From assembly GCA_964385355.1 (NCBI GenBank), contig CAYLOO010000005.1:1850-65849 (forward strand): a DNA stretch of 64,000 nucleotides. The letters run 5' to 3'. Shown here piece by piece: positions 28,286 to 58,103 of this stretch. Each line of letters starts with the position of its first letter. Position 1 is the stretch's first letter. A program made the translations under genes and the position numbers. Below the pieces are notes generated by a model. It worked only from the letters and a program-made list of their open reading frames with translations, did no database searches and was not told where the DNA came from. The DNA is from an uncultured Anaerolineaceae bacterium. GTDB taxonomy: Bacteria > Chloroflexota > Anaerolineae > Anaerolineales > E44-bin32.

Positions 28286-28909
28286 TTAGGCTGTGATGTT
28301 GAGAAGATTTTTCAGTTCTCCCAAGATGGTCTTAGGGTCTTGAAAGTGGATTCCATGGATCCCCAGTTCACGAGCTCCCTGGATATTTACAATAAAGTCG
28401 TCGATGAAGATCGTTTGTTCCGCTTCGACATCCAACCGATCGAGGGCTAATTGATAGATTCGCCGGTCGGGTTTTGCTAACCCAACTTCGGCTGAAACGA
28501 TTATTTCGTCGAAGATATCCGCGATATGCCAGCGTTCTTCAAGGAAGCGTCGAGTGGAAGACCATCCATTCGATAATAGACCCATTTTGGTTCCGTTTGC
28601 GCGGGCGCGGATAAAACGGATCAATTCCATGTCAATCTGATCGCCTGACCAGAACTCATCCCTCACGAGTGTTAATTCATCACTCGAAAGTTTGAGTTGC
28701 GCACCCACCCACATCCAGAGATCGTCATTAGTGGCTTCGCCTACGGTGGCTTTGCGACTCATCTCGCTCTCGAAGACGAGTTCGTATATTTTCCCATTGG
28801 GCAGATCCAGCATCCGGTCCAGACGATGCCGCGGCTCCCAGTCTTCAGTACGAAGAATGACGCCTCCAATATCCCAGAGGATGGCCTTGAAGGGGTCGGG
28901 TTTGTCCAT
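28286..28909 (-). CDS. HAD-superfamily hydrolase (YihX-like)
   Basis: WDIGGVI, LLSNG, KPDRRIY, FIDD. Confidence 0.9.
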   Translation of the reverse strand: MDKPDPFKAILWDIGGVILRTEDWEPRHRLDRMLDLPNGKIYELVFESEMSRKATVGEATNDDLWMWVGAQLKLSSDELTLVRDEFWSGDQIDMELIRFIRARANGTKMGLLSNGWSSTRRFLEERWHIADIFDEIIVSAEVGLAKPDRRIYQLALDRLDVEAEQTIFIDDFIVNIQGARELGIHGIHFQDPKTILGELKNLLNITA

Positions 28910-29045
28910 GCTATTCCTGCTCCCATTCAGCAAGGGCAAGAAGCTTGCCCTATCTATACCCCAAGATAGTTGCCGTACATTATAGTAGATATGCGACGAG
29001 GGATAGCACTTGCCAGGTCATGTTGGATTGCATGCTGATGGATCC

Positions 29046-30074
29046 TCACTCCTTCTGGAGTTCCTCTCCAGTACGCAGTTCAATCTCGTAGGTGACATAC
29101 TCTCGCTGTACATGCATGCCCGCTTTCTCATACAGTTTCGTCGCGCCGGCGAGATTGTTTGAGTCGACGCCTAAACCAACGCGGGGTTTCCCGCGGCGAT
29201 AAAATTCGCCGAAAACTTGCCTTAACAGGGCTAACCCCAAGCCTCGGCGTCGCCATGGACGCCGGACACCAAGGACACTCACCCAACCCTTGTCCGGGTC
29301 GTCATCTGACTCCGCTCGACACGCAACCATGCCGGCAATTTCATCCCCGTCCATGGCCAGGAACCATAAAGTAGGGTCGGGCTTCCGGATTTCAAAAACG
29401 TAGTGTTTCCATTGTTTGAATCCCTCTTCAAAGGGGGTTTCCACATATCCCCAATGGTCCTCGAAGGCCTCGTCTTCGGCCCGGTAGGCGGCTTCGGTAT
29501 CCTCCGGGTGCTGTATATTCCGGATTGAGATACCCTCCGGCCATACAGGTGCTGGGGGCGCTGCGTCAAATTCGAGCAACATGTTCCATCCATAGCGGAT
29601 GCCTTTCATGCCCATACTCTGCAGTAGTTCCTTCGCCGGAGTGTACGTGTTTACGGTTCCAGAGCGCGCCGAGACGCGAGCGCCCTTGGGAACGCGGGGT
29701 ATTGCCTCGCGGGCGCGTTCCAATGCCCATTCCATCATCGCTGTGCTAATGCCCTTGCCTTCCCACTGTGGATGGACGCGACCCCAAATCCAGGGGTGGA
29801 TGGGCGGTTTCTCTACATCCCACACCTCGATGCAGCCGACGATTTGTCCTGCCGAGGTAATCACAAGTCTGGTGTCGTGTTGAAGATCGAATCCCGGCAT
29901 CTGCCATTCCTTCGTGTAGCGTTCCTCTGTAAACTCGGGAGCACCGATCATCGCCTTTGAGCACAGGTTAAACATCTCCACTGAACCCTCGATGTCATCC
30001 AAACTTGCCGGGCGGATCGTGTAACCAGCGTTAGCAAGTTTGTTGAAAGTCTGTTCAGTCATCATCTTCTCCAT
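29046..30074 (-). CDS. Tandem-domain GNAT acetyltransferase (paralog 2)
   Basis: WGRVHPQWEGKGI; VLGVRRPWRRRGLG; LGVDSNNLAGATKLYEKAG; start approximate. Confidence 0.9.
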   Translation of the reverse strand: MEKMMTEQTFNKLANAGYTIRPASLDDIEGSVEMFNLCSKAMIGAPEFTEERYTKEWQMPGFDLQHDTRLVITSAGQIVGCIEVWDVEKPPIHPWIWGRVHPQWEGKGISTAMMEWALERAREAIPRVPKGARVSARSGTVNTYTPAKELLQSMGMKGIRYGWNMLLEFDAAPPAPVWPEGISIRNIQHPEDTEAAYRAEDEAFEDHWGYVETPFEEGFKQWKHYVFEIRKPDPTLWFLAMDGDEIAGMVACRAESDDDPDKGWVSVLGVRRPWRRRGLGLALLRQVFGEFYRRGKPRVGLGVDSNNLAGATKLYEKAGMHVQREYVTYEIELRTGEELQKE

Positions 30075-30117: not shown

Positions 30118-31134
30118 TTATACCATCGGCTTACGATAGGCCATCCATAGCTTGATATTTTGAAATCCAAGATTTTCATATAAGCCCAGTGCGCCACTTG
30201 GATTATCGGTATCTACTCCTAAAGAAGCTTCCTCCATGCCCTCATCTTTTAGCATCTGCATACTTTGAGCCAATAGCGACCGGGCCAGACCGCGTCTGCG
30301 CCAAGGCCGACGAACGCTGATATCTTCCGTATGACCTCGTTTGCGGCTGAAGCGTTCATTTTCCTCGTCATTGATGAAGTTCAAGACCATGCCGGCGACC
30401 TGCCCGTTGTCCCAGGCGACTTTCCAGCGCGCGGGTTGAAAGTAGGGGCTTTTAACCCACCCTTGGTATTCAGAGTCCGTCGCTGGGACATGCCCCCAAT
30501 GGTCTTGAAAAGCTTCTTCGGAAGCATCGAAGATAGTCCGGTATAGATCCGGAGTAGCAGGACGAATTTCGAGACCCTCAGGCAATGCTATTTCAGGGAT
30601 ATCAGCATCAAGCGGACGTACCATCTCAAAGAAAAAGCGGACAGGTTGGTATCCTGCACTTTTCAGCAGAGCCTGCTTCTCACTCTCAGTATCCGCCAGA
30701 TTAACTTGGAAAAAACGTAAGCCGTCTTTCGGGGCGTGTATGGCCAGACCTTTCAAATGGTCCTTAGTGAAACGCAGCAAGGTTGACCCAATCCCCTTTC
30801 GCCTCCACTCGGGGAGGACGCAGCCATCGTGCCGAAAGATGACATCGCCGTTTGACTCATGGAGCCAGTTCATTCGGACGTAGCCTACCAAATCCCCGCA
30901 AATCTCCGCGAGTAGAACATCCTGAGTTGGATCGAAGTTCTGCATGTGATTGAATCTGCGCGCAATGTCGTCGGAAGTGATGACTTCATCCACGCCATCC
31001 GCCTCCCAGCAGCGCTGGATGATGGTGGCGATCCGTTCATTCTCCCGCGGATCTGAATAGCCCCGGAAAGTTAACCCTGGTATTTTGGGTGCATAGGCCA
31101 GGTTCTTCAGATCAGGATTTAATTTCTCTTTCAT
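30118..31134 (-). CDS. Tandem-domain GNAT acetyltransferase (paralog 1)
   Basis: VLPEWRRKGIG; ISVRRPWRRRGLAR; LGVDTDNPSGALGLYENLG; ATG 31134 follows GAGGTG. Confidence 0.9.
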   Translation of the reverse strand: MKEKLNPDLKNLAYAPKIPGLTFRGYSDPRENERIATIIQRCWEADGVDEVITSDDIARRFNHMQNFDPTQDVLLAEICGDLVGYVRMNWLHESNGDVIFRHDGCVLPEWRRKGIGSTLLRFTKDHLKGLAIHAPKDGLRFFQVNLADTESEKQALLKSAGYQPVRFFFEMVRPLDADIPEIALPEGLEIRPATPDLYRTIFDASEEAFQDHWGHVPATDSEYQGWVKSPYFQPARWKVAWDNGQVAGMVLNFINDEENERFSRKRGHTEDISVRRPWRRRGLARSLLAQSMQMLKDEGMEEASLGVDTDNPSGALGLYENLGFQNIKLWMAYRKPMV

Positions 31135-31301
31135 CTCACACCTCAAACCGATCCGCAGCTTCTTACTGCGGTGAAGCCCAATTAATGGCAATTGGAGTTC
31201 CGTATTATTGATCACAGCCGCATCAACTATTCGATTGACGAATTCTTCATCATTTGCACACCCGGATTGACTGCTCTCTATGCGGCTGAGACGTCTTGGT
31301 G

Positions 31302-31340
31302 AAACAAAAAAACCGCGGGCGCTGTAGTGCGCCCGCGGCT
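31302..31340 (-). terminator. Intrinsic terminator of the leader-peptide transcript
   Basis: On the minus strand CCGCGGGCGC-ACTACA-GCGCCCGCGG followed by T7-GTTT. Confidence 0.9.
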
Positions 31341-31365
31341 GTCATTAGGACAGAATCGTCAGGAT

Positions 31366-31467
31366 CTATCTCTCGATAGGCGCACTCCGCGTAGGTAAGA
31401 CGAAACCAGAACCGATAACTGTGTGGCTTCGAACCGCCGCTACAATTTTCACCATAAGCATCATCAT
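31366..31467 (-). CDS. Putative 33-aa leader peptide MMMLMVKIVAAVRSHTVIGSGFVLPTRSAPIER
   Basis: Below the track length cutoff. SD AAAGGAGG at 31480-31487, 12 nt from the first ATG; upstream sigma70-type promoter; terminator follows. Confidence 0.65.
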   Translation of the reverse strand: MMMLMVKIVAAVRSHTVIGSGFVLPTRSAPIER

Positions 31468-31501
31468 AATAGGGTGCGCCCTCCTTTCATAAGATGGGGC
31501 C

Positions 31502-31530
31502 ATCTTAAACCTGAATTAAGTGTACGTCAA
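31502..31530 (-). promoter_or_regulatory. sigma70-type promoter TTGACG-N17-TAAGAT
   Basis: -35 at 31525-31530 and -10 at 31502-31507 with an exact 17-nt spacer. Confidence 0.7.
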
Positions 31531-31563: not shown

Positions 31564-33429
31564 TCAACGTCTCAACATCGCTGCAGCTCGTTCTACTGAT
31601 CTGGAGCTGCCGATGAGACCAACGCGATCACCCAACTTGAAGGTTAAGTCCCCTTGGGGAACCATCACGGTGCCATCGCGCGACATGCTTACGATGAGTG
31701 CATCGCCGGGCAGCCGAATTTTCCGGAGTGGCACGTCAGTGATGGATGGATTGCCAATCCGCACTTCTACAACCTCGATCTCGCTATCTCCACGGTCCAT
31801 CAGAAGGTCGAAAATCATCGGGTAGTGAAGAGCACCTTCTATGGCCATTACAGTGGCGAGCGTGGGTTGAACGACTTTCACACCCAAGCGCTGAAGCCGA
31901 GGTATCAGCTCTACATCGCTGATCCTGGAGATGACGAGAGGGATATGGTACATCTGCCGTGCTATGGTGCAGACATTTAACGTCTCCTCCGAGCTCATCG
32001 TCAGATCGATGAGAACGCGGGCATCGGCGGCGCCAGCTTTCGCGAGAGTTGCGGGCAGGTCTGCACAACCCTCGAAAAAATCAACATCCAATCGTTGGAA
32101 CGCAGCTTTGCGGCTATCGTCCGGGCAGATAATGGCAACGGTCTCGTTGAGGGCGAGCAGCCGTTCAACGAGGAACTCAGTCAGTTGATCTTGGCCTATG
32201 AGGATGATACCGCGGCGGCGCTTTTCCTCACCGGCGGGAAGAATGCGGTTGAAGAGTATTGGTGATAGCGTGCAGGAAACAATAGCGAGAAGAATGATCG
32301 CAGCATCAAGAGCTTCTGTGATCAAACCTAGACGTAAAGCAATAGACGCGGCGGCGATGATGAGAGAGAGACGAGCGGACAGCAGAAAACCACTTGCGAA
32401 GGTTTCTCGCCAGTTAAATTGTAAGCGCAGCAGAAGCGCCGGGATGACCTTAACTAAATATGCTATGGCAACAAACAATGGGATCAGCAGGAGAGCTTGA
32501 GGGGATTCTATGATGGCTCGAAGGTTCAACTCAACGCCGACCATTATGAAGAAAATTGGGATGAAGAATCCATAGCCGATAGCATCGAGCTTTGCACGCG
32601 CGTTCTCGCCTTCCTGATCATCGAGTAAACCAGCAATGACACCAGCCAGAAAAGCACCCAGGATGAGCTCCACGCCCAACGCTTCAGCCAGCACAACCCA
32701 GGCAACCATGAGCGCGAATGCGCCGCGCACTCGGATTTGCGCTGTGGCGCTCGAAAGCTCATCGAGGAAGGTTTGCAGAAAGCCCAGCTCAGAGATTCGC
32801 CGCATTCCGCGAACAGCAACGGCAAAGATGGTTAATAGGGCAGGTATCAGCAGGAGATCCAGCGTCAATCCTTGACTGCGAATGGCGATGACGATTGTCA
32901 GCAAAAGCAGAGTGACGAAATCTGCAACGGATGCAGCGACAAGGATGTATTGGCCATATTTTAGATCGAGAAGATCCCGCTCCTTAAGGACGGGCACTAC
33001 AATGCCCAGGGAAGTCGTACTCAGGATCAAACCGATGAGGATCGGACTTTCAATGAGACCTGACAAAGACAGCAGCCATGAGAAAAAGAAAGCCAAGATG
33101 AGGGTGCCCAGCAAGAGTAGTACGGCGAGCGTCAGGGGACGCTTCCAGAAAGATTTGCCGCTTGAGTATGGACCACCAGATAGGAGAAGTTCGAAATCCA
33201 CTTCCAATCCGGAGAGGAACATCAGATATGCGAAACCAAACTCCGCCAGAAATCTGAGCGTCTGTGAAGGTTCAACAAGATTTAGACCACTTTGACCAAT
33301 GATGATGCCCGCGACGATCTCGCCGACAACGATGGGGATGTAAAAACGGCGCAGGCGAGCTGAGAGAATTGGGACAACCAGGGCGAGCACCGTAATAAGA
33401 AGGAGGGCTAGAAAGGGGCTGTGATCCAT
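31564..33429 (-). CDS. CPA2 cation:proton antiporter fused to RCK (TrkA-N/TrkA-C) domains
   Basis: About 12-13 TM, FLSGLE, LSTTSLG, ASVADF, FFIMVG; C-terminal IIGQDQL and LRKIRLPGDALIVSMSR. Confidence 0.92.
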   Translation of the reverse strand: MDHSPFLALLLITVLALVVPILSARLRRFYIPIVVGEIVAGIIIGQSGLNLVEPSQTLRFLAEFGFAYLMFLSGLEVDFELLLSGGPYSSGKSFWKRPLTLAVLLLLGTLILAFFFSWLLSLSGLIESPILIGLILSTTSLGIVVPVLKERDLLDLKYGQYILVAASVADFVTLLLLTIVIAIRSQGLTLDLLLIPALLTIFAVAVRGMRRISELGFLQTFLDELSSATAQIRVRGAFALMVAWVVLAEALGVELILGAFLAGVIAGLLDDQEGENARAKLDAIGYGFFIPIFFIMVGVELNLRAIIESPQALLLIPLFVAIAYLVKVIPALLLRLQFNWRETFASGFLLSARLSLIIAAASIALRLGLITEALDAAIILLAIVSCTLSPILFNRILPAGEEKRRRGIILIGQDQLTEFLVERLLALNETVAIICPDDSRKAAFQRLDVDFFEGCADLPATLAKAGAADARVLIDLTMSSEETLNVCTIARQMYHIPLVISRISDVELIPRLQRLGVKVVQPTLATVMAIEGALHYPMIFDLLMDRGDSEIEVVEVRIGNPSITDVPLRKIRLPGDALIVSMSRDGTVMVPQGDLTFKLGDRVGLIGSSRSVERAAAMLRR

Positions 33430-33534: not shown

Positions 33535-34575
33535 TTAATCGTGGGTTAGTCTCACACTATTAATAAAGTCAGCGAGAAGACCATAGGCTGTTGTGTGCGG
33601 TCCTGGATCGGACTCGGTGATCGTAAGCGGACCGAGGGTGTCGCTGTGAAAGGTTACGGCGGATGAGGTCCCCATCACATTGTAGAGCGGATCGCTGGGA
33701 TCGAGCAGTTCGGGGTGTACAGATGTCGCTATCCCTTTGTCTGTTCTTTCGGCCTTGCAGATGAGTTTCCAGCGTTTCCCCTCTGCTGAAGCAGATTGTA
33801 TGTCTTCGCTGCAGAGTGACTCAATCCCTTTACGCACAACGCCAGACGGTTTCAGATTTGTGCCCATGAGCACGGTGACGAGGGCCGAAACCTTAATTGC
33901 CGCGTCCCAGCCCTCGATATCGCCGGAGGGATCGGTCTCGGCGATCCCGATTGACTGGGTGTAAGCGACGGCGTCTTCGAAGGTCTTTCCCTGCTCCATT
34001 AAGGTTAGGATGAGATTGGTTGTTGAGTTCAGGATCCCACGGAAGGATTGGAGATCTGCTGCAGGAAGCGTTTCGCGCCAGAGTGAAAACACTGGCGCTC
34101 CATCCATAACCGCAGATTCGAAGAAGAATTTCCGCTTATGTGCCTGCGCTAATTTTGTAAGTTCGCGGTAGGCGTGGACGACCGGACCTTTATTCGCCGT
34201 TATGGCGTGCATGCCGGCAGAAAGCGCAGTGGAGATGTGTTCAATCGCCGGTTGACCGTCGTCGTAGCTGACGGGGGTGTTCTCAAAGAGAACGTCCGCA
34301 TTGCATGCCCGAATGAATTCGGAGCCATTTTGTGGTGTCGGCCCAGCGGTTAGTGGGTCGAGTGATCCACCCGCTTCGATCATCGCCAGCGCACGCTCAA
34401 GGTCTATCCCCGTTGAGTTAATCGCTGCTCCGTGGCGACCGGTCATGATTCCAACAACTTGCCAGTTTAAATCCTGCTGGGTTAGAAGTTCTTCGCCTTT
34501 CACCAGCAGCAGCCGCGCGAATGCCTGGCCAACGTTTCCGAAACCTAGGAGAGTGAATTTGTAGGTATCCTTCAA
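33535..34575 (-). CDS. hom: Homoserine dehydrogenase (no ACT domain)
   Basis: LGFGNVG, ITANKGP, FESAVMDGAP, GILNSTTN, AETDPSGDIEGWDAAIK. Confidence 0.92.
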   Translation of the reverse strand: MKDTYKFTLLGFGNVGQAFARLLLVKGEELLTQQDLNWQVVGIMTGRHGAAINSTGIDLERALAMIEAGGSLDPLTAGPTPQNGSEFIRACNADVLFENTPVSYDDGQPAIEHISTALSAGMHAITANKGPVVHAYRELTKLAQAHKRKFFFESAVMDGAPVFSLWRETLPAADLQSFRGILNSTTNLILTLMEQGKTFEDAVAYTQSIGIAETDPSGDIEGWDAAIKVSALVTVLMGTNLKPSGVVRKGIESLCSEDIQSASAEGKRWKLICKAERTDKGIATSVHPELLDPSDPLYNVMGTSSAVTFHSDTLGPLTITESDPGPHTTAYGLLADFINSVRLTHD

Positions 34576-56173: not shown

Positions 56174-56246
56174 CGGGGTGTAGCGCAGATGGAAGCGCGC
56201 CGCGTTTGGGACGCGGAGGTCGGCGGTTCAAGTCCGCCCACCCCGA
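56174..56246 (+). tRNA. tRNA-Pro(TGG)
   Basis: CGGGGTG/CACCCCG acceptor stem; anticodon arm CCGCG-TTTGGGA-CGCGG; GGTTCAAGTCC; CCA not encoded. Confidence 0.95.
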
Positions 56247-56298
56247 CTGTTTGTTATCCCGACTGTATTTTACAACCCCTTAGCGATGGGAGGGAACG

Positions 56299-56628
56299 AT
56301 GCGAGGAATTCGCGTCACGAAGGAATCGCGCAAGATAGATGTTGTTCTCGTTGCCGCGAGGTACGCATCTAAGGGAGATCGGGTCAGGGTTGCGAGAGGT
56401 TATATTCGTCGCGGGGCGGTCTGGGGTGACCTGAAACTGCTGCCTCGCAAGGATCTCGTCGAGCGATTAAAGTCAGGCGAGCGAATTGTTGTCGGGGAAT
56501 TTGCGGAGATCCCTGGGAGCTTCCACACAGTCGCGAAGGTGCGATTGACGGAAGGGAGCGGGGGTGAAAGACTCGTCGCAGATGGCGTGGATGGGAAGGG
56601 GGACGAGCTTGGATTGCCATTATTTTAA
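56299..56628 (+). CDS. Hypothetical protein (loosely DUF3892-like)
   Basis: SD GGGAGG; IDVVLVAARY...RKDLVERLKSGERIVVG. Confidence 0.7.
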   Translation: MRGIRVTKESRKIDVVLVAARYASKGDRVRVARGYIRRGAVWGDLKLLPRKDLVERLKSGERIVVGEFAEIPGSFHTVAKVRLTEGSGGERLVADGVDGKGDELGLPLF

Positions 56629-56728
56629 ACGGATCAGTGTCACTGATTAGATAATCGTCGGGCGAACTTAGGGGCTGAAATTGGTTAGCTTGACCGGCTC
56701 AGGGGCGAACGGTAGAATCAAATCATGC

Positions 56729-56803
56729 GCGGGCGTCGCCAAGTGGTAAGGCATCAGCCTTCCAAGCTGACATTCACGGGTTCGAATCCCGTCGCCCGCT
56801 CCA
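56729..56803 (+). tRNA. tRNA-Gly(TCC)
   Basis: GCGGGCG/CGCCCGC acceptor stem; TCAGC-CTTCCAA-GCTGA; GGTTCGAATCC; encoded CCA. Confidence 0.97.
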
Positions 56804-56804
56804 T

Positions 56805-56828
56805 ACCGCCTTCGGGCGGTTGTTTTTT
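56805..56828 (+). terminator. Intrinsic terminator after tRNA-Gly
   Basis: ACCGCC-TTCG-GGCGGT followed by TGTTTTTT. Confidence 0.85.
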
Positions 56829-56983
56829 CGTGGAGTGGAAAGTAATGGGTTTTTACCAAATTGATTTTCGTGGCTAAAGTTTTACCGGCAGTGCAGACCG
56901 ACTAAAAAGACCGGAAAGAGTGCATCCTTCAAGTTGTGAATGCATTGAGACCGCGCTATCCTATCTTGGAGGAAGGACACTCC

Positions 56984-57886
56984 ATGAAGAAAGTGCTGAG
57001 CGTCAGCCTGGGCTCTACGACCCGAGATCACTCCACGGAAGCTGAGTTTATGGGGGAGCACTTTTGGCTCAGCCGCCAGGGCACGGACGGCGACTACGAT
57101 CTCTGTGTCCAAATGTACCGCGACAACGACGGCAAGGTGGATGCCTTTGGAGTAGGAGGGACGGAATTCTATCTGTGGGTGAACGGTCGACGCTACTATT
57201 TCCGCGAAGCCAAGCGCATCCGCAAAGCGATCAAGATCTCTAAGGTGGGGGATGGCAACGGCATCAAGCATCTCCTCGCACCGCTAGCGATACAGGCGCT
57301 CCAGGAGCATGGGTATGACCTGCGCGGCAAGAAGGCTCTCAAGACGACAGCCGTCGATCGCTACGGTCTGGCGAAGGCGCTCGTCGATGCAGGCTGTGAT
57401 GTGACCTTCGGCGACTTTATGTTCGCGCTCGATCTGCCGATCCCCATCCGTAGCATCCGCACCGTGCACATCGTGGCGGTCCTGCTCCTACCCATCATGA
57501 CGCAGCTTCCCTTCCGCTGGCTCTATCCCGTGGGCGCGGACCAGGAGAAAGAGCCCTCCAAGAAGTACAGCCGTTTCTACGAGGAGGCGGATATCATCGC
57601 TGGTGACTTCCTGCAGATCTGGTCCAATCTGCCCGACGACTTGAGCGGAAAGATCATCATCACAAACACCACCACGGCTAAGAATGTCGAGGCGCTGCAA
57701 GAGCGTAATCTGCATGTCCTGGTGACGAATACCCCCCGCCTGGAGGGGCGTTCTTTCGGCACGAACGTCATCGAGGCCATGTGCCGCTGTCTGATCGACA
57801 AACCCGATGACCAGATCACCGAGGCGGACTTCAAAGACATCATCGCACGCGTGCCCCTCAAGCCGCAGGTGCACATTCTGAATTAA
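56984..57886 (+). CDS. Uncharacterised protein of the family often labelled 'quinate 5-dehydrogenase'
   Basis: MKKVLSVSLGSTTRDH, DGKVDAFGVGG, GDGNGIK, GRSFGTNVIEA; SD GGAGGAAGG. Confidence 0.75.
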   Translation: MKKVLSVSLGSTTRDHSTEAEFMGEHFWLSRQGTDGDYDLCVQMYRDNDGKVDAFGVGGTEFYLWVNGRRYYFREAKRIRKAIKISKVGDGNGIKHLLAPLAIQALQEHGYDLRGKKALKTTAVDRYGLAKALVDAGCDVTFGDFMFALDLPIPIRSIRTVHIVAVLLLPIMTQLPFRWLYPVGADQEKEPSKKYSRFYEEADIIAGDFLQIWSNLPDDLSGKIIITNTTTAKNVEALQERNLHVLVTNTPRLEGRSFGTNVIEAMCRCLIDKPDDQITEADFKDIIARVPLKPQVHILN

Positions 57887-58030
57887 GTGACACCGTCACT
57901 TGCATGCAAAATGGGCAGGAGCGGCCAGGCCGGTTCTTACCTCATACTTAAAAACTTGATTACCCTGTCGCTAAATAAAATTGATGAAAGACTTCCGACT
58001 TCGGCGGGGGTCTGCTAAAATCATAAACGA

Positions 58031-58103
58031 GGGCCCGTAGCTCAGTGGTAAGAGCGGCCGGCTCATAACCGGTTGGTCGTAGGTTCGATTCCTACCGGGC
58101 CCA
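58031..58103 (+). tRNA. tRNA with CAT anticodon, most likely tRNA-Ile2 (lysidine)
   Basis: GGGCCCG/CGGGCCC acceptor stem; GCCGG-CTCATAA-CCGGT; GGTCGTAGGTTCGA resembles Ile2 more than Met tRNAs. Confidence 0.88.

Follow-up and report, generated by a model that had tools for sequence, protein, structure and literature searches.

A putative ribosome-mediated transcription attenuator with a conserved leader peptide upstream of acetyltransferase operons in Anaerolineae

The window analysed here is a stretch of 64,000 nucleotides (nt) of contig CAYLOO010000005.1 from an uncultured Anaerolineaceae bacterium. On its minus strand, an acetyltransferase operon is preceded by a leader region carrying a promoter, a small open reading frame (ORF) and an intrinsic terminator, and this leader is the subject of the present work. 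The first gene after it, GNAT1 (30118..31134), encodes a tandem-GNAT protein with an MshD-like fold, in which Pfam Acetyltransf_1 matches two stretches and TIGR03448 scores below its cutoff. It is followed by a paralogous tandem-GNAT gene, GNAT2 (29046..30074, start approximate), and by a gene assigned to the HAD-family hydrolases by profile matches (28286..28939), the last gene of the conserved operon. The same GNAT pair is present in L099, and a HAD gene follows the GNAT genes in L076, L088, L091 and L099 (L numbers denote loci compared with the window).

All coordinates of the element refer to the minus strand of the window, and its features were re-read at their positions. A first-pass annotation of this DNA had listed a promoter, a Shine-Dalgarno (SD) sequence, a 33-codon ORF, a terminator and a 9-bp pairing, every one of which is present where it had been placed. 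The sigma-70-type promoter (31502..31530), which also appeared in the program's scan, consists of a −35 box TTGACG (31530-31525) and a −10 box TAAGAT (31507-31502) separated by 17 nt; transcription is predicted to start near 31495. Within the ribosome-binding region of the leader (31472..31487) lies the SD AAAGGAGG (31487-31480). The leader ORF (31366..31467; 33 codons, MMMLMVKIVAAVRSHTVIGSGFVLPTRSAPIER) ends with the stop codon TAG (31368-31366). Its conserved core begins at the fifth Met (31455), and the preceding MMML (31467-31456) is a subclade-specific extension. The intrinsic terminator (31306..31338) has the stem CCGCGGGCGC (31338-31329) / GCGCCCGCGG (31322-31313) with the loop ACUACA and is completed by a U7 tract (31312-31306). 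The terminator scan counted 12 stem pairs; the GC-rich stem comprises 10-12 pairs. Between the U tract and the ATG of GNAT1 (31134) there are 171 nt (31135..31305), in agreement with the earlier figure of about 170 nt; this spacer is partly conserved in clade A of the family described below.

The 9-bp pairing joins AGUGCGCCU (31386-31378) to GGGCGCACU (31334-31326) by eight Watson-Crick pairs and one G.U pair. What had been overlooked is a second partner of AGUGCGCCU, namely GGAGGGCGCAC at the leader's own SD (31484-31474). In the minimum free energy fold of the leader, the strand GGAGUGCGCCU (31378..31388) is paired with GGAGGGCGCAC, and the fold of the whole leader has a z-score of −3.7. Since this strand also pairs with the ribosome-binding region, all four segments of a classical attenuator are present. 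Segment 1, the anti-antiterminator strand (GGAGGGCGCACCC, 31484-31472), lies in the ribosome-binding region, where it overlaps the SD. Segment 2 (GGAGUGCGCCU) holds the codons for Ser-Ala-Pro and is shared between segments 1 and 3; segment 3 is formed by the upper 5′ arm and loop of the terminator, and segment 4 by its 3′ arm (31322-31313). The duplex energies are −19.5 kcal/mol for 1:2, −17.8 kcal/mol for 2:3 and −23.4 kcal/mol for 3:4. The distance of 12 nt between the SD and the ATG (31467), correctly noted before as long, is explained by segment 1, which fills this spacer. Two small hairpins lie between segment 2 and the terminator (31339..31379) and are kept in clade A: CUAUC-GAGA-GAUAG (31379-31366), which takes in the stop codon, and CUGUC-CUAAU-GACAG (31353-31339). 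According to constraint folds, both are arms of the antiterminator three-way junction.

The 14-nt segment 2 was shuffled 2000 times with its composition kept. Shuffled sequences equalled the 2:3 energy of the window in 0.9% and the 1:2 energy in 0.2% of the trials, and none of the 2000 equalled both. By these shuffles, the z-score of the fold and the conservation of the element against diverging flanks, the element is beyond chance.

Relatives of the leader were sought with GNAT1 against one genome per species, with a metagenome scan for three repeated motifs, and with peptide profile searches. The GNAT1 scan returned close relatives with 83-92% identity, nearly all of them in metagenome-assembled genomes of Anaerolineales. 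Where these contain enough upstream DNA, conservation is far higher between a point just past the −10 box and the U tract than on either side. The metagenomes added eight further close copies as well as a GC-rich one that differs strongly (L072); three other motif matches, L071 (within a Cas4-like coding sequence), L073 and L075, were discarded as chance matches in GC-rich coding DNA. A peptide profile run over six-frame translations detected distant copies in front of GNATs with 31% identity (L015 and L032). In a large protein collection, a profile of the upstream-extended frame of 45 amino acids (aa) found 31 clusters of hypothetical proteins of 29-49 aa, all ending in G-x-G-F-V-(L)-P-x-R-S-A-P-x-x-R. 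This motif, directly followed by the stop codon, is the conserved, C-terminal part of the leader peptide. The family comprises at least 38 peptide variants and about 30 distinct loci, on Anaerolineae-type contigs with the same layout. The leader was not found at the more distant GNAT homologues of other Chloroflexota and Actinomycetota (approximately 26-45% identity; L006-L014 and L016-L063 except L024 and L032).

The position of the promoter, the SD, the ORF, the terminator and the antiterminator pairing recur in five sequence clades, A to E. Boxes of the form TTGAC (−35) and TAnnnT (−10) hold their position in the relatives despite a differing spacer and upstream gene, and the promoter of clade B reads TTGACG-N-TGTTACACT. 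In contigs of the database members, an extended −10 promoter, an SD, a small ORF and one or two terminators precede the genes in constant order. Every homologue has the terminator, and in clade B there are often two.

Segments 1 and 3 are alike within every clade. They read GGGCGCAC and GGGCGCACUCC in clade A, AGGCGCAC and GG[U/C]GCACU in clade B, ACAGGCGCA and CGGGCGCA in clade C, GUGCGCUU and GGAGUGCUCU in clade D, and GGGCGCACU and GGGCGCAC in clade E, respectively. Clade D, represented by L083, is the only one with a changed segment 2 (AGC for AGU), and its altered segments 1 and 3 still pair with it. The 2:3 pairing comprises nine pairs in the window and 11 in most clade A relatives, and GCAC is retained in the terminator loop, a part that is normally free to vary. 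Within the whole ORF, the segment 2 window was the best partner of the ribosome-binding region in 21 of 22 representative sequences and of the terminator 5′ arm and loop in 20 of 22; the joint shuffle p was at most 0.012 in all nine representatives tested. An RNAalifold consensus of 17 sequences returned the 1:2 helix together with the terminator. Covariation among orthologous leaders, proposed earlier as a check, was seen as a compensatory GC/AU exchange at one pair of the terminator stem (four of the 17 sequences); the near-invariant 1:2 helix showed none.

No stop codon interrupts the ORF in any of the 38 peptide variants, and gene callers had already predicted it as a protein of 29-34 aa in public assemblies. 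Its stop codon lies 2-4 codons past Ser-Ala-Pro and differs in identity among members (TAG, TAA or TGA). Insertions and deletions within the ORF are multiples of three, except for a 14-nt deletion in the L024 subclade that takes out the start region before the fifth Met, where the ORF begins in these members. A 1-nt insertion just before the stop in L005 and L068 shifts the stop up by one codon. Conserved residues are encoded by different codons in different clades (Ser by TCT/TCC or AGT, Arg by AGA or CGT/CGC, Leu by TTA, TTG or CTG, Ala by GCT, GCC or GCA), and the ratio of non-synonymous to synonymous differences (pN/pS) is about 0.5-0.75 for the ORF, with values of 0.5-0.55 for clade B and 0.6-0.95 for clade A. 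This pattern indicates that the leader frame is coding and the peptide under moderate selection. The codons AGT GCG CCT are unchanged in any way within clades A and B, while pS of the adjacent codons is 0.17-0.6; this points to a nucleotide-level constraint on the Ser-Ala-Pro codons, as a shared switch strand would predict. A longer frame of 45 aa from the ATG at 31503 was ruled out as the true start, as this ATG lies inside the −10 box and upstream of the predicted transcription start. A separate mini-ORF, AUG AAA GGA GGG CGC ACC CUA UUA UGA (31464-31490), begins about 5 nt past that start and spans the SD and segment 1. In the subclade of L024, L069 and L074 its AUG shares the reading frame of the leader ORF (MKGGRILME...), and it is absent in clade B.

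Alternating 1:2, 2:3 and 3:4 helices are also the classic design of an OFF riboswitch. Helix 1:2 would then be the P1 stem of a ligand-binding domain of about 110 nt, the terminator the expression platform and the ORF incidental, and the high nucleotide conservation within clade A as well as the z-score of the leader fold would suit such an RNA. Between the clades, however, the interior is wholly different, while frame, start, stop position and amino-acid motif are retained, and RNAalifold gave no supported conserved internal helices between segments 1 and 2. Rfam 15 contained nothing at gathering score, and up to E = 10 only terminator look-alikes were matched, the best being sX11 with 28 bits against a cutoff of 70. 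A non-coding riboswitch is thus hardly credible.

Both states of the leader had been suggested for folding, and constraint folds yielded all three predicted states. Without a ribosome, the RNA folds into 1:2 plus the terminator. When positions −15 to +15 around codon 1 were blocked and the RNA stopped before segment 4, 2:3 formed and closed a three-way junction. With the ribosome placed on the last codon, segment 2 was covered and the terminator formed. In L002, whose loop reads ACUCCA, the antiterminator has 11 pairs (−24.4 kcal/mol) and is the full-length optimum once segment 1 is masked. The loop of the window (31323-31328) is ACUACA, compared with ACUCCA (or ACUCUA, ACUUCA) in nearly all clade A relatives. 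With C replaced by A at this one position, the antiterminator has nine pairs in place of 11 (−17.8 against −24.4 kcal/mol), and read-through at the window copy may be lower than in its relatives.

Taking together the conserved parts of the leader, its coding ORF, the possible pairings and the arrangement of the operon, we infer a logic of ribosome position and the nature of the signal. RNA started at the promoter would encode a peptide of 29-33 residues and then meet the strong intrinsic terminator, and the tandem-GNAT/HAD operon would be transcribed by read-through only. On a leader without a ribosome, 1:2 and 3:4 would form and transcription would end. It would likewise end with a ribosome at the end of the ORF, which would sit on segment 2 and let 3:4 form. 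A ribosome held at the ribosome-binding site or on the first few codons would mask segment 1 and leave segment 2 free; 2:3 could then precede the synthesis of segment 4, resulting in read-through. As the absence of translation and completed translation would both cause termination, the leader would therefore sense delayed or impaired translation of its own ORF, e.g. through an inhibitor or starvation. A ribosome-mediated transcription attenuator that reports slowed leader translation is in our opinion the best explanation and a fairly probable one; that the leader has the architecture of an attenuator is very probable. The earlier reading of this leader as a leader-peptide attenuator is in this way supported for the architecture that gates the GNAT genes, and not for its specificity for Met, discussed below.

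Several points weigh against this explanation. All of its support is computational. The 1:2 helix is nearly invariant and hence gains no true support from covariation in RNAalifold; it is also weak in L076 and L093, where GGAGACGCAC makes an A.C mismatch. In clade B and L083, 2:3 barely beats shuffled sequences (p = 0.04-0.14). In the window, the antiterminator of nine pairs loses to the terminator in full-length folds because its loop is ACUACA and not ACUCCA; with the terminator thermodynamically favoured there, the antiterminator would have to win kinetically for read-through to occur. The conservation of the C-terminal peptide is left unexplained by the model. Finally, a promoter of the GNAT genes' own downstream of the terminator had been raised as evidence to the contrary. 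In the window, L002 and L076, a consensus scan showed no promoter-like site in the stretch that separates the terminator from the first GNAT gene, but the conserved 171-nt spacer may hold a weak internal promoter that such a scan would miss.

At the related loci, nearly all leaders precede GNAT arrays and a HAD hydrolase gene. First in order come three RimJ/L-like GNATs (Acetyltransf_3, about 190 aa each), then a tandem GNAT (about 330 aa), a small protein of unknown kind and finally the HAD hydrolase; the arrays reach up to five acetyltransferase genes. Exceptions are L083, where the leader precedes a DrrA-like ABC ATPase gene, and L072 and L084-L087, where it precedes rsgA (TIGR00157, 166 bits versus a cutoff of 100). 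Since the same leader stands before GNAT arrays, a DrrA-like ABC ATPase and RsgA, a shared regulatory signal fits better than a dedicated peptide product. These genes would fit a response to translation stress, as they encode GNATs with weak AAC(6′)/RimJ/SpeG-like similarity, the 30S-biogenesis GTPase RsgA and a DrrA-like ATPase. For general translation stress as the signal we would claim somewhat less than even confidence.

The tandem GNATs have a mycothiol synthase-like architecture and score far under the cutoff of that family; their C-terminal domain resembles N-alpha-acetyltransferases of the RimI/Naa type. All AAC-like profile matches to the GNATs were far under their cutoffs. The closest relatives of GNAT1 in the PDB are 3tt2 and 7q3a, the latter being the best. 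By its matching depositor name, 7q3a is presumably MAB_4324c, a tandem GNAT that belongs to the GNATs induced in the whiB7 system of Actinobacteria.

The exceptions also bear on the idea that the ORF is a stand-alone gene for a small protein, such as a precursor or partner of the acetyltransferases, with its own promoter and a leaky terminator that sets the ratio of peptide to enzyme. In peptide natural-product clusters, precursor genes with a partial terminator behind them are known, the leader peptide is under some purifying selection, and the ORF is almost always located beside GNAT genes. Yet the same peptide precedes RsgA and the ABC ATPase without any GNAT, and searches of Pfam and NCBIfam with four representative leader peptides gave no match at E up to 10. 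Nor would a small protein account for the nucleotide-level freezing of the Ser-Ala-Pro codons or for their complementarity to both the ribosome-binding site and the terminator loop in every clade. We therefore regard this as quite unlikely. Compared with attenuation, a stand-alone peptide product, a riboswitch and chance are all much less likely.

The first-pass annotation had taken MMMLM at the start of the ORF for the control region and a shortage of charged Met-tRNA for the signal, which would stall the ribosome on these codons and free the antiterminator. In constraint folds of the window, a ribosome stalled at codons 1-3 would indeed mask segment 1. Several clades also carry extra Met codons among the first 5-10 (MMMLM, MMILK, MAMN, MVMTIM, MHSKM), and the share of non-initiator Met in the N-terminal part is 8%, compared with a typical 2-3%. 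However, the Met run is a 12-14-nt insertion confined to part of clade A and is not conserved even in close relatives (GNATs 83-92% identical), which read MMILK or (M)VILK or open at the fifth Met (MEKF.., MVNF..). The leaders of L024, L069 and L074 start at the fifth Met with an SD spacing of 10 nt, those of L005 and L068 with GTG GTG ATT CTT AAA (VILK). Database members read MMILK, MMILI or MMNLK, and other clades start with MAMN, MVMN, MAKN, MVLN, MASK, MHSK or MVGV. In the N-terminal part, Ile, Ala, Lys, Val and Thr are all more frequent than non-initiator Met, which ranks sixth and has no fixed cluster site. Moreover, none of the downstream genes (tandem GNATs, RimJ/L-like GNATs, HAD, DrrA-like ABC ATPase and RsgA) serves the synthesis or import of Met. 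An attenuator specific for Met is thus very unlikely, and neither the control region nor the signal is borne out; there is a small probability that early Met codons help to slow the ribosome near segment 1 in some lineages. A ribosome-stalling drug or general stalling, which had been offered as a fallback, may instead be what the leader responds to.

The conservation of the C-terminus suggests the main rival, in which the nascent peptide itself is the sensor. It would act as an arrest peptide, with the ribosome stalling on segment 2, either at R-S-A|P or on meeting the stop codon, and a small molecule, drug or ribosome state sensed in the exit tunnel would tune the stall and set the choice between terminator and antiterminator. 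The conserved last 12-15 residues are those that occupy the tunnel once the ribosome has reached the stop or its vicinity, the synonymous codon switches across clades suggest selection on amino acids, and the stop keeps to a distance of 2-4 codons from Ser-Ala-Pro. The final residue is usually Arg, and the last residue of SpeFL is an Arg as well. An Arg three residues ahead of Pro is also found in RAGP of SecM, its variants RGSP and RASP, and RAPP. On the other hand, RSAP is absent from the motifs shown to arrest (PMC12992588, PMC10987492), pN/pS is only about 0.5, and the conservation is partly at the nucleotide level. In addition, a stall on segment 2 predicts termination rather than read-through, which calls for an extra step, and there is no known candidate ligand. 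We consider it unlikely, though less so than specificity for Met or a small-protein gene, that G-F-V-(L)-P-x-R-S-A-P-x-x-R-stop is a new arrest peptide whose Ser-Ala-Pro codons double as the switch strand of an intrinsic-terminator riboregulator. If true, the expression of acetyltransferase arrays, RsgA or an ABC ATPase in Anaerolineae would depend on a ribosome that its nascent chain parks there in response to a ribosome defect or to a small molecule bound in the tunnel.

The mechanism class to which we would assign the leader, ribosome-mediated attenuation, is a textbook one, and the family is absent from Rfam, Pfam and NCBIfam. Chloroflexota are abundant and poorly studied, and our literature search found no paper on this element or on leader-peptide attenuation in this phylum. 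With the classical amino-acid leader-peptide attenuators of Escherichia coli (trp, his, leu, thr and ilv; PMC1183508) it shares a promoter, a short leader ORF, an intrinsic terminator and mutually exclusive 1:2, 2:3 and 3:4 pairings; as in these systems, the position of the ribosome is proposed to select the fold, with a ribosome at the stop codon masking segment 2. It differs from them in that segment 1 lies in the ribosome-binding region of the leader and not in its coding part, that the C-terminal peptide is conserved instead of a run of regulatory codons, and that the genes encode acetyltransferases and no biosynthetic pathway.

A functional analogy is offered by the attenuator of whiB7/wblC in Actinobacteria, where an upstream ORF is combined with a rho-independent terminator and an antiterminator and read-through occurs when translation of the upstream ORF is impaired (PMC10274678, PMC10727445). 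It responds to translation stress, and GNATs, HflX and ABC ATPases belong to the regulon (PMC10274678, PMC10727445). Both systems thus combine the same regulatory parts with GNATs, ABC ATPases and a ribosome GTPase, HflX there and RsgA here. Unlike the whiB7 attenuator, which controls a transcription factor that activates the regulon, the leader described here stands directly before the effector genes; the upstream ORF of whiB7 is variable and Ala-rich, whereas our leader has a fixed C-terminal motif, and the two, from different phyla, have no sequence similarity. The comparison suggests a translation-stress response wired straight to its effector genes, in parallel to the actinobacterial WhiB7 system.

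Drug-inducible attenuating leader peptides, such as those of bmrB-bmrCD (PMC4191407), yxjB (PMC6851288), mef/mel (PMC4335068) and msrD (PMC10314930), likewise combine a short leader ORF with a choice between terminator and antiterminator. In these, the choice is set by a stalled ribosome and the genes counter ribosome-targeting compounds, whereas the AAC-like matches of our GNATs are far under cutoffs and the peptide motif is unrelated. Ribosome arrest peptides such as SecM (RAGP), ApdA/ApdP (RAPP), TnaC and SpeFL (PMC12992588, PMC10987492) resemble the leader in being short ORFs upstream of a regulated gene, with a C-terminal motif and a stop a few codons on. Their output is the unmasking of an SD or the blocking of Rho, unlike the intrinsic terminator found here, and no secA, secDF or yidC is located downstream of the leader in any locus examined.

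Three traits of the leader are unusual: its own ribosome-binding site is the anti-antiterminator, three codons are frozen both as code and as switch, and the conserved tail of the peptide is arrest-like. The family is a compact cis-regulator amenable to testing, and knowledge of the inducer would also point to the substrates of these acetyltransferases.

The gene upstream of the leader varies. In the window it encodes a CPA2-type cation/proton antiporter with TrkA domains (31564-33429), beyond which lies a homoserine dehydrogenase gene (33535-34575); in L004, L024 and L099 homoserine dehydrogenase adjoins the leader. By this comparison, the antiporter gene looks like an insertion in the window or a loss in the other loci. 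Between its stop codon and the leader promoter, no terminator was found in the window. The leader terminator was ruled out as the end of the antiporter gene, as the element stays with the GNATs at loci that have another upstream gene. In clade B (L076-L098), a receiver-only response regulator gene (147-171 aa) is always transcribed away from the leader promoter, on the opposite strand and approximately 50-110 nt ahead of the leader ORF. An HSP20 gene and a conserved gene of unknown function (about 330 aa) come before this regulator gene; the window has no such neighbour.

In L003 (positions 1-176; GNAT 85% identical) the terminator and the downstream spacer are kept and the upstream sequence is unrelated and lacks a leader ORF; this may reflect a rearrangement or an assembly break, as the contig begins 143 nt upstream. 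L004 (JAIWHF010000040.1) is an Anaerolineales-like locus with the same leader and a GNAT of 83% identity under the record title Methanosarcinales archaeon, and its contig is probably mis-binned.

Further hairpins occur in the leaders of clades B and C. Many have a second terminator hairpin directly after the first (L076:4120-4200; L079, L093, L094, L097, L098 and L032), and the loop of the second one in L076 again carries GGGCGCAC, complementary to segment 2. The gap from the stop codon to the first GNAT in clade B is usually just 120-160 nt and mostly taken up by hairpins. A small hairpin (UUUAC...GUAAA) begins right after the stop codon in this clade, at 3034-3058 in L015 and at the same place in L076, L079, L088, L091 and L094. 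Its stem varies by member (UUACG/CGUAG, UACAC/GUGUA, AUUACA/UGUAAU). It may serve as a pause hairpin; alternatively, a ribosome that has reached the stop may melt it.

The fold of the spacer between terminator and GNAT1 is unremarkable (z = −1.9). Its partial conservation in clade A includes L001 and L003, with a hairpin CCGCAG-N7-CUGCGG just before the GNAT SD; L004, L005 and L024 lack about 55-60 nt of it. Elsewhere in the window, three tRNA genes are located on the plus strand at 56174-58103 (Rfam tRNA, 67-77 bits).

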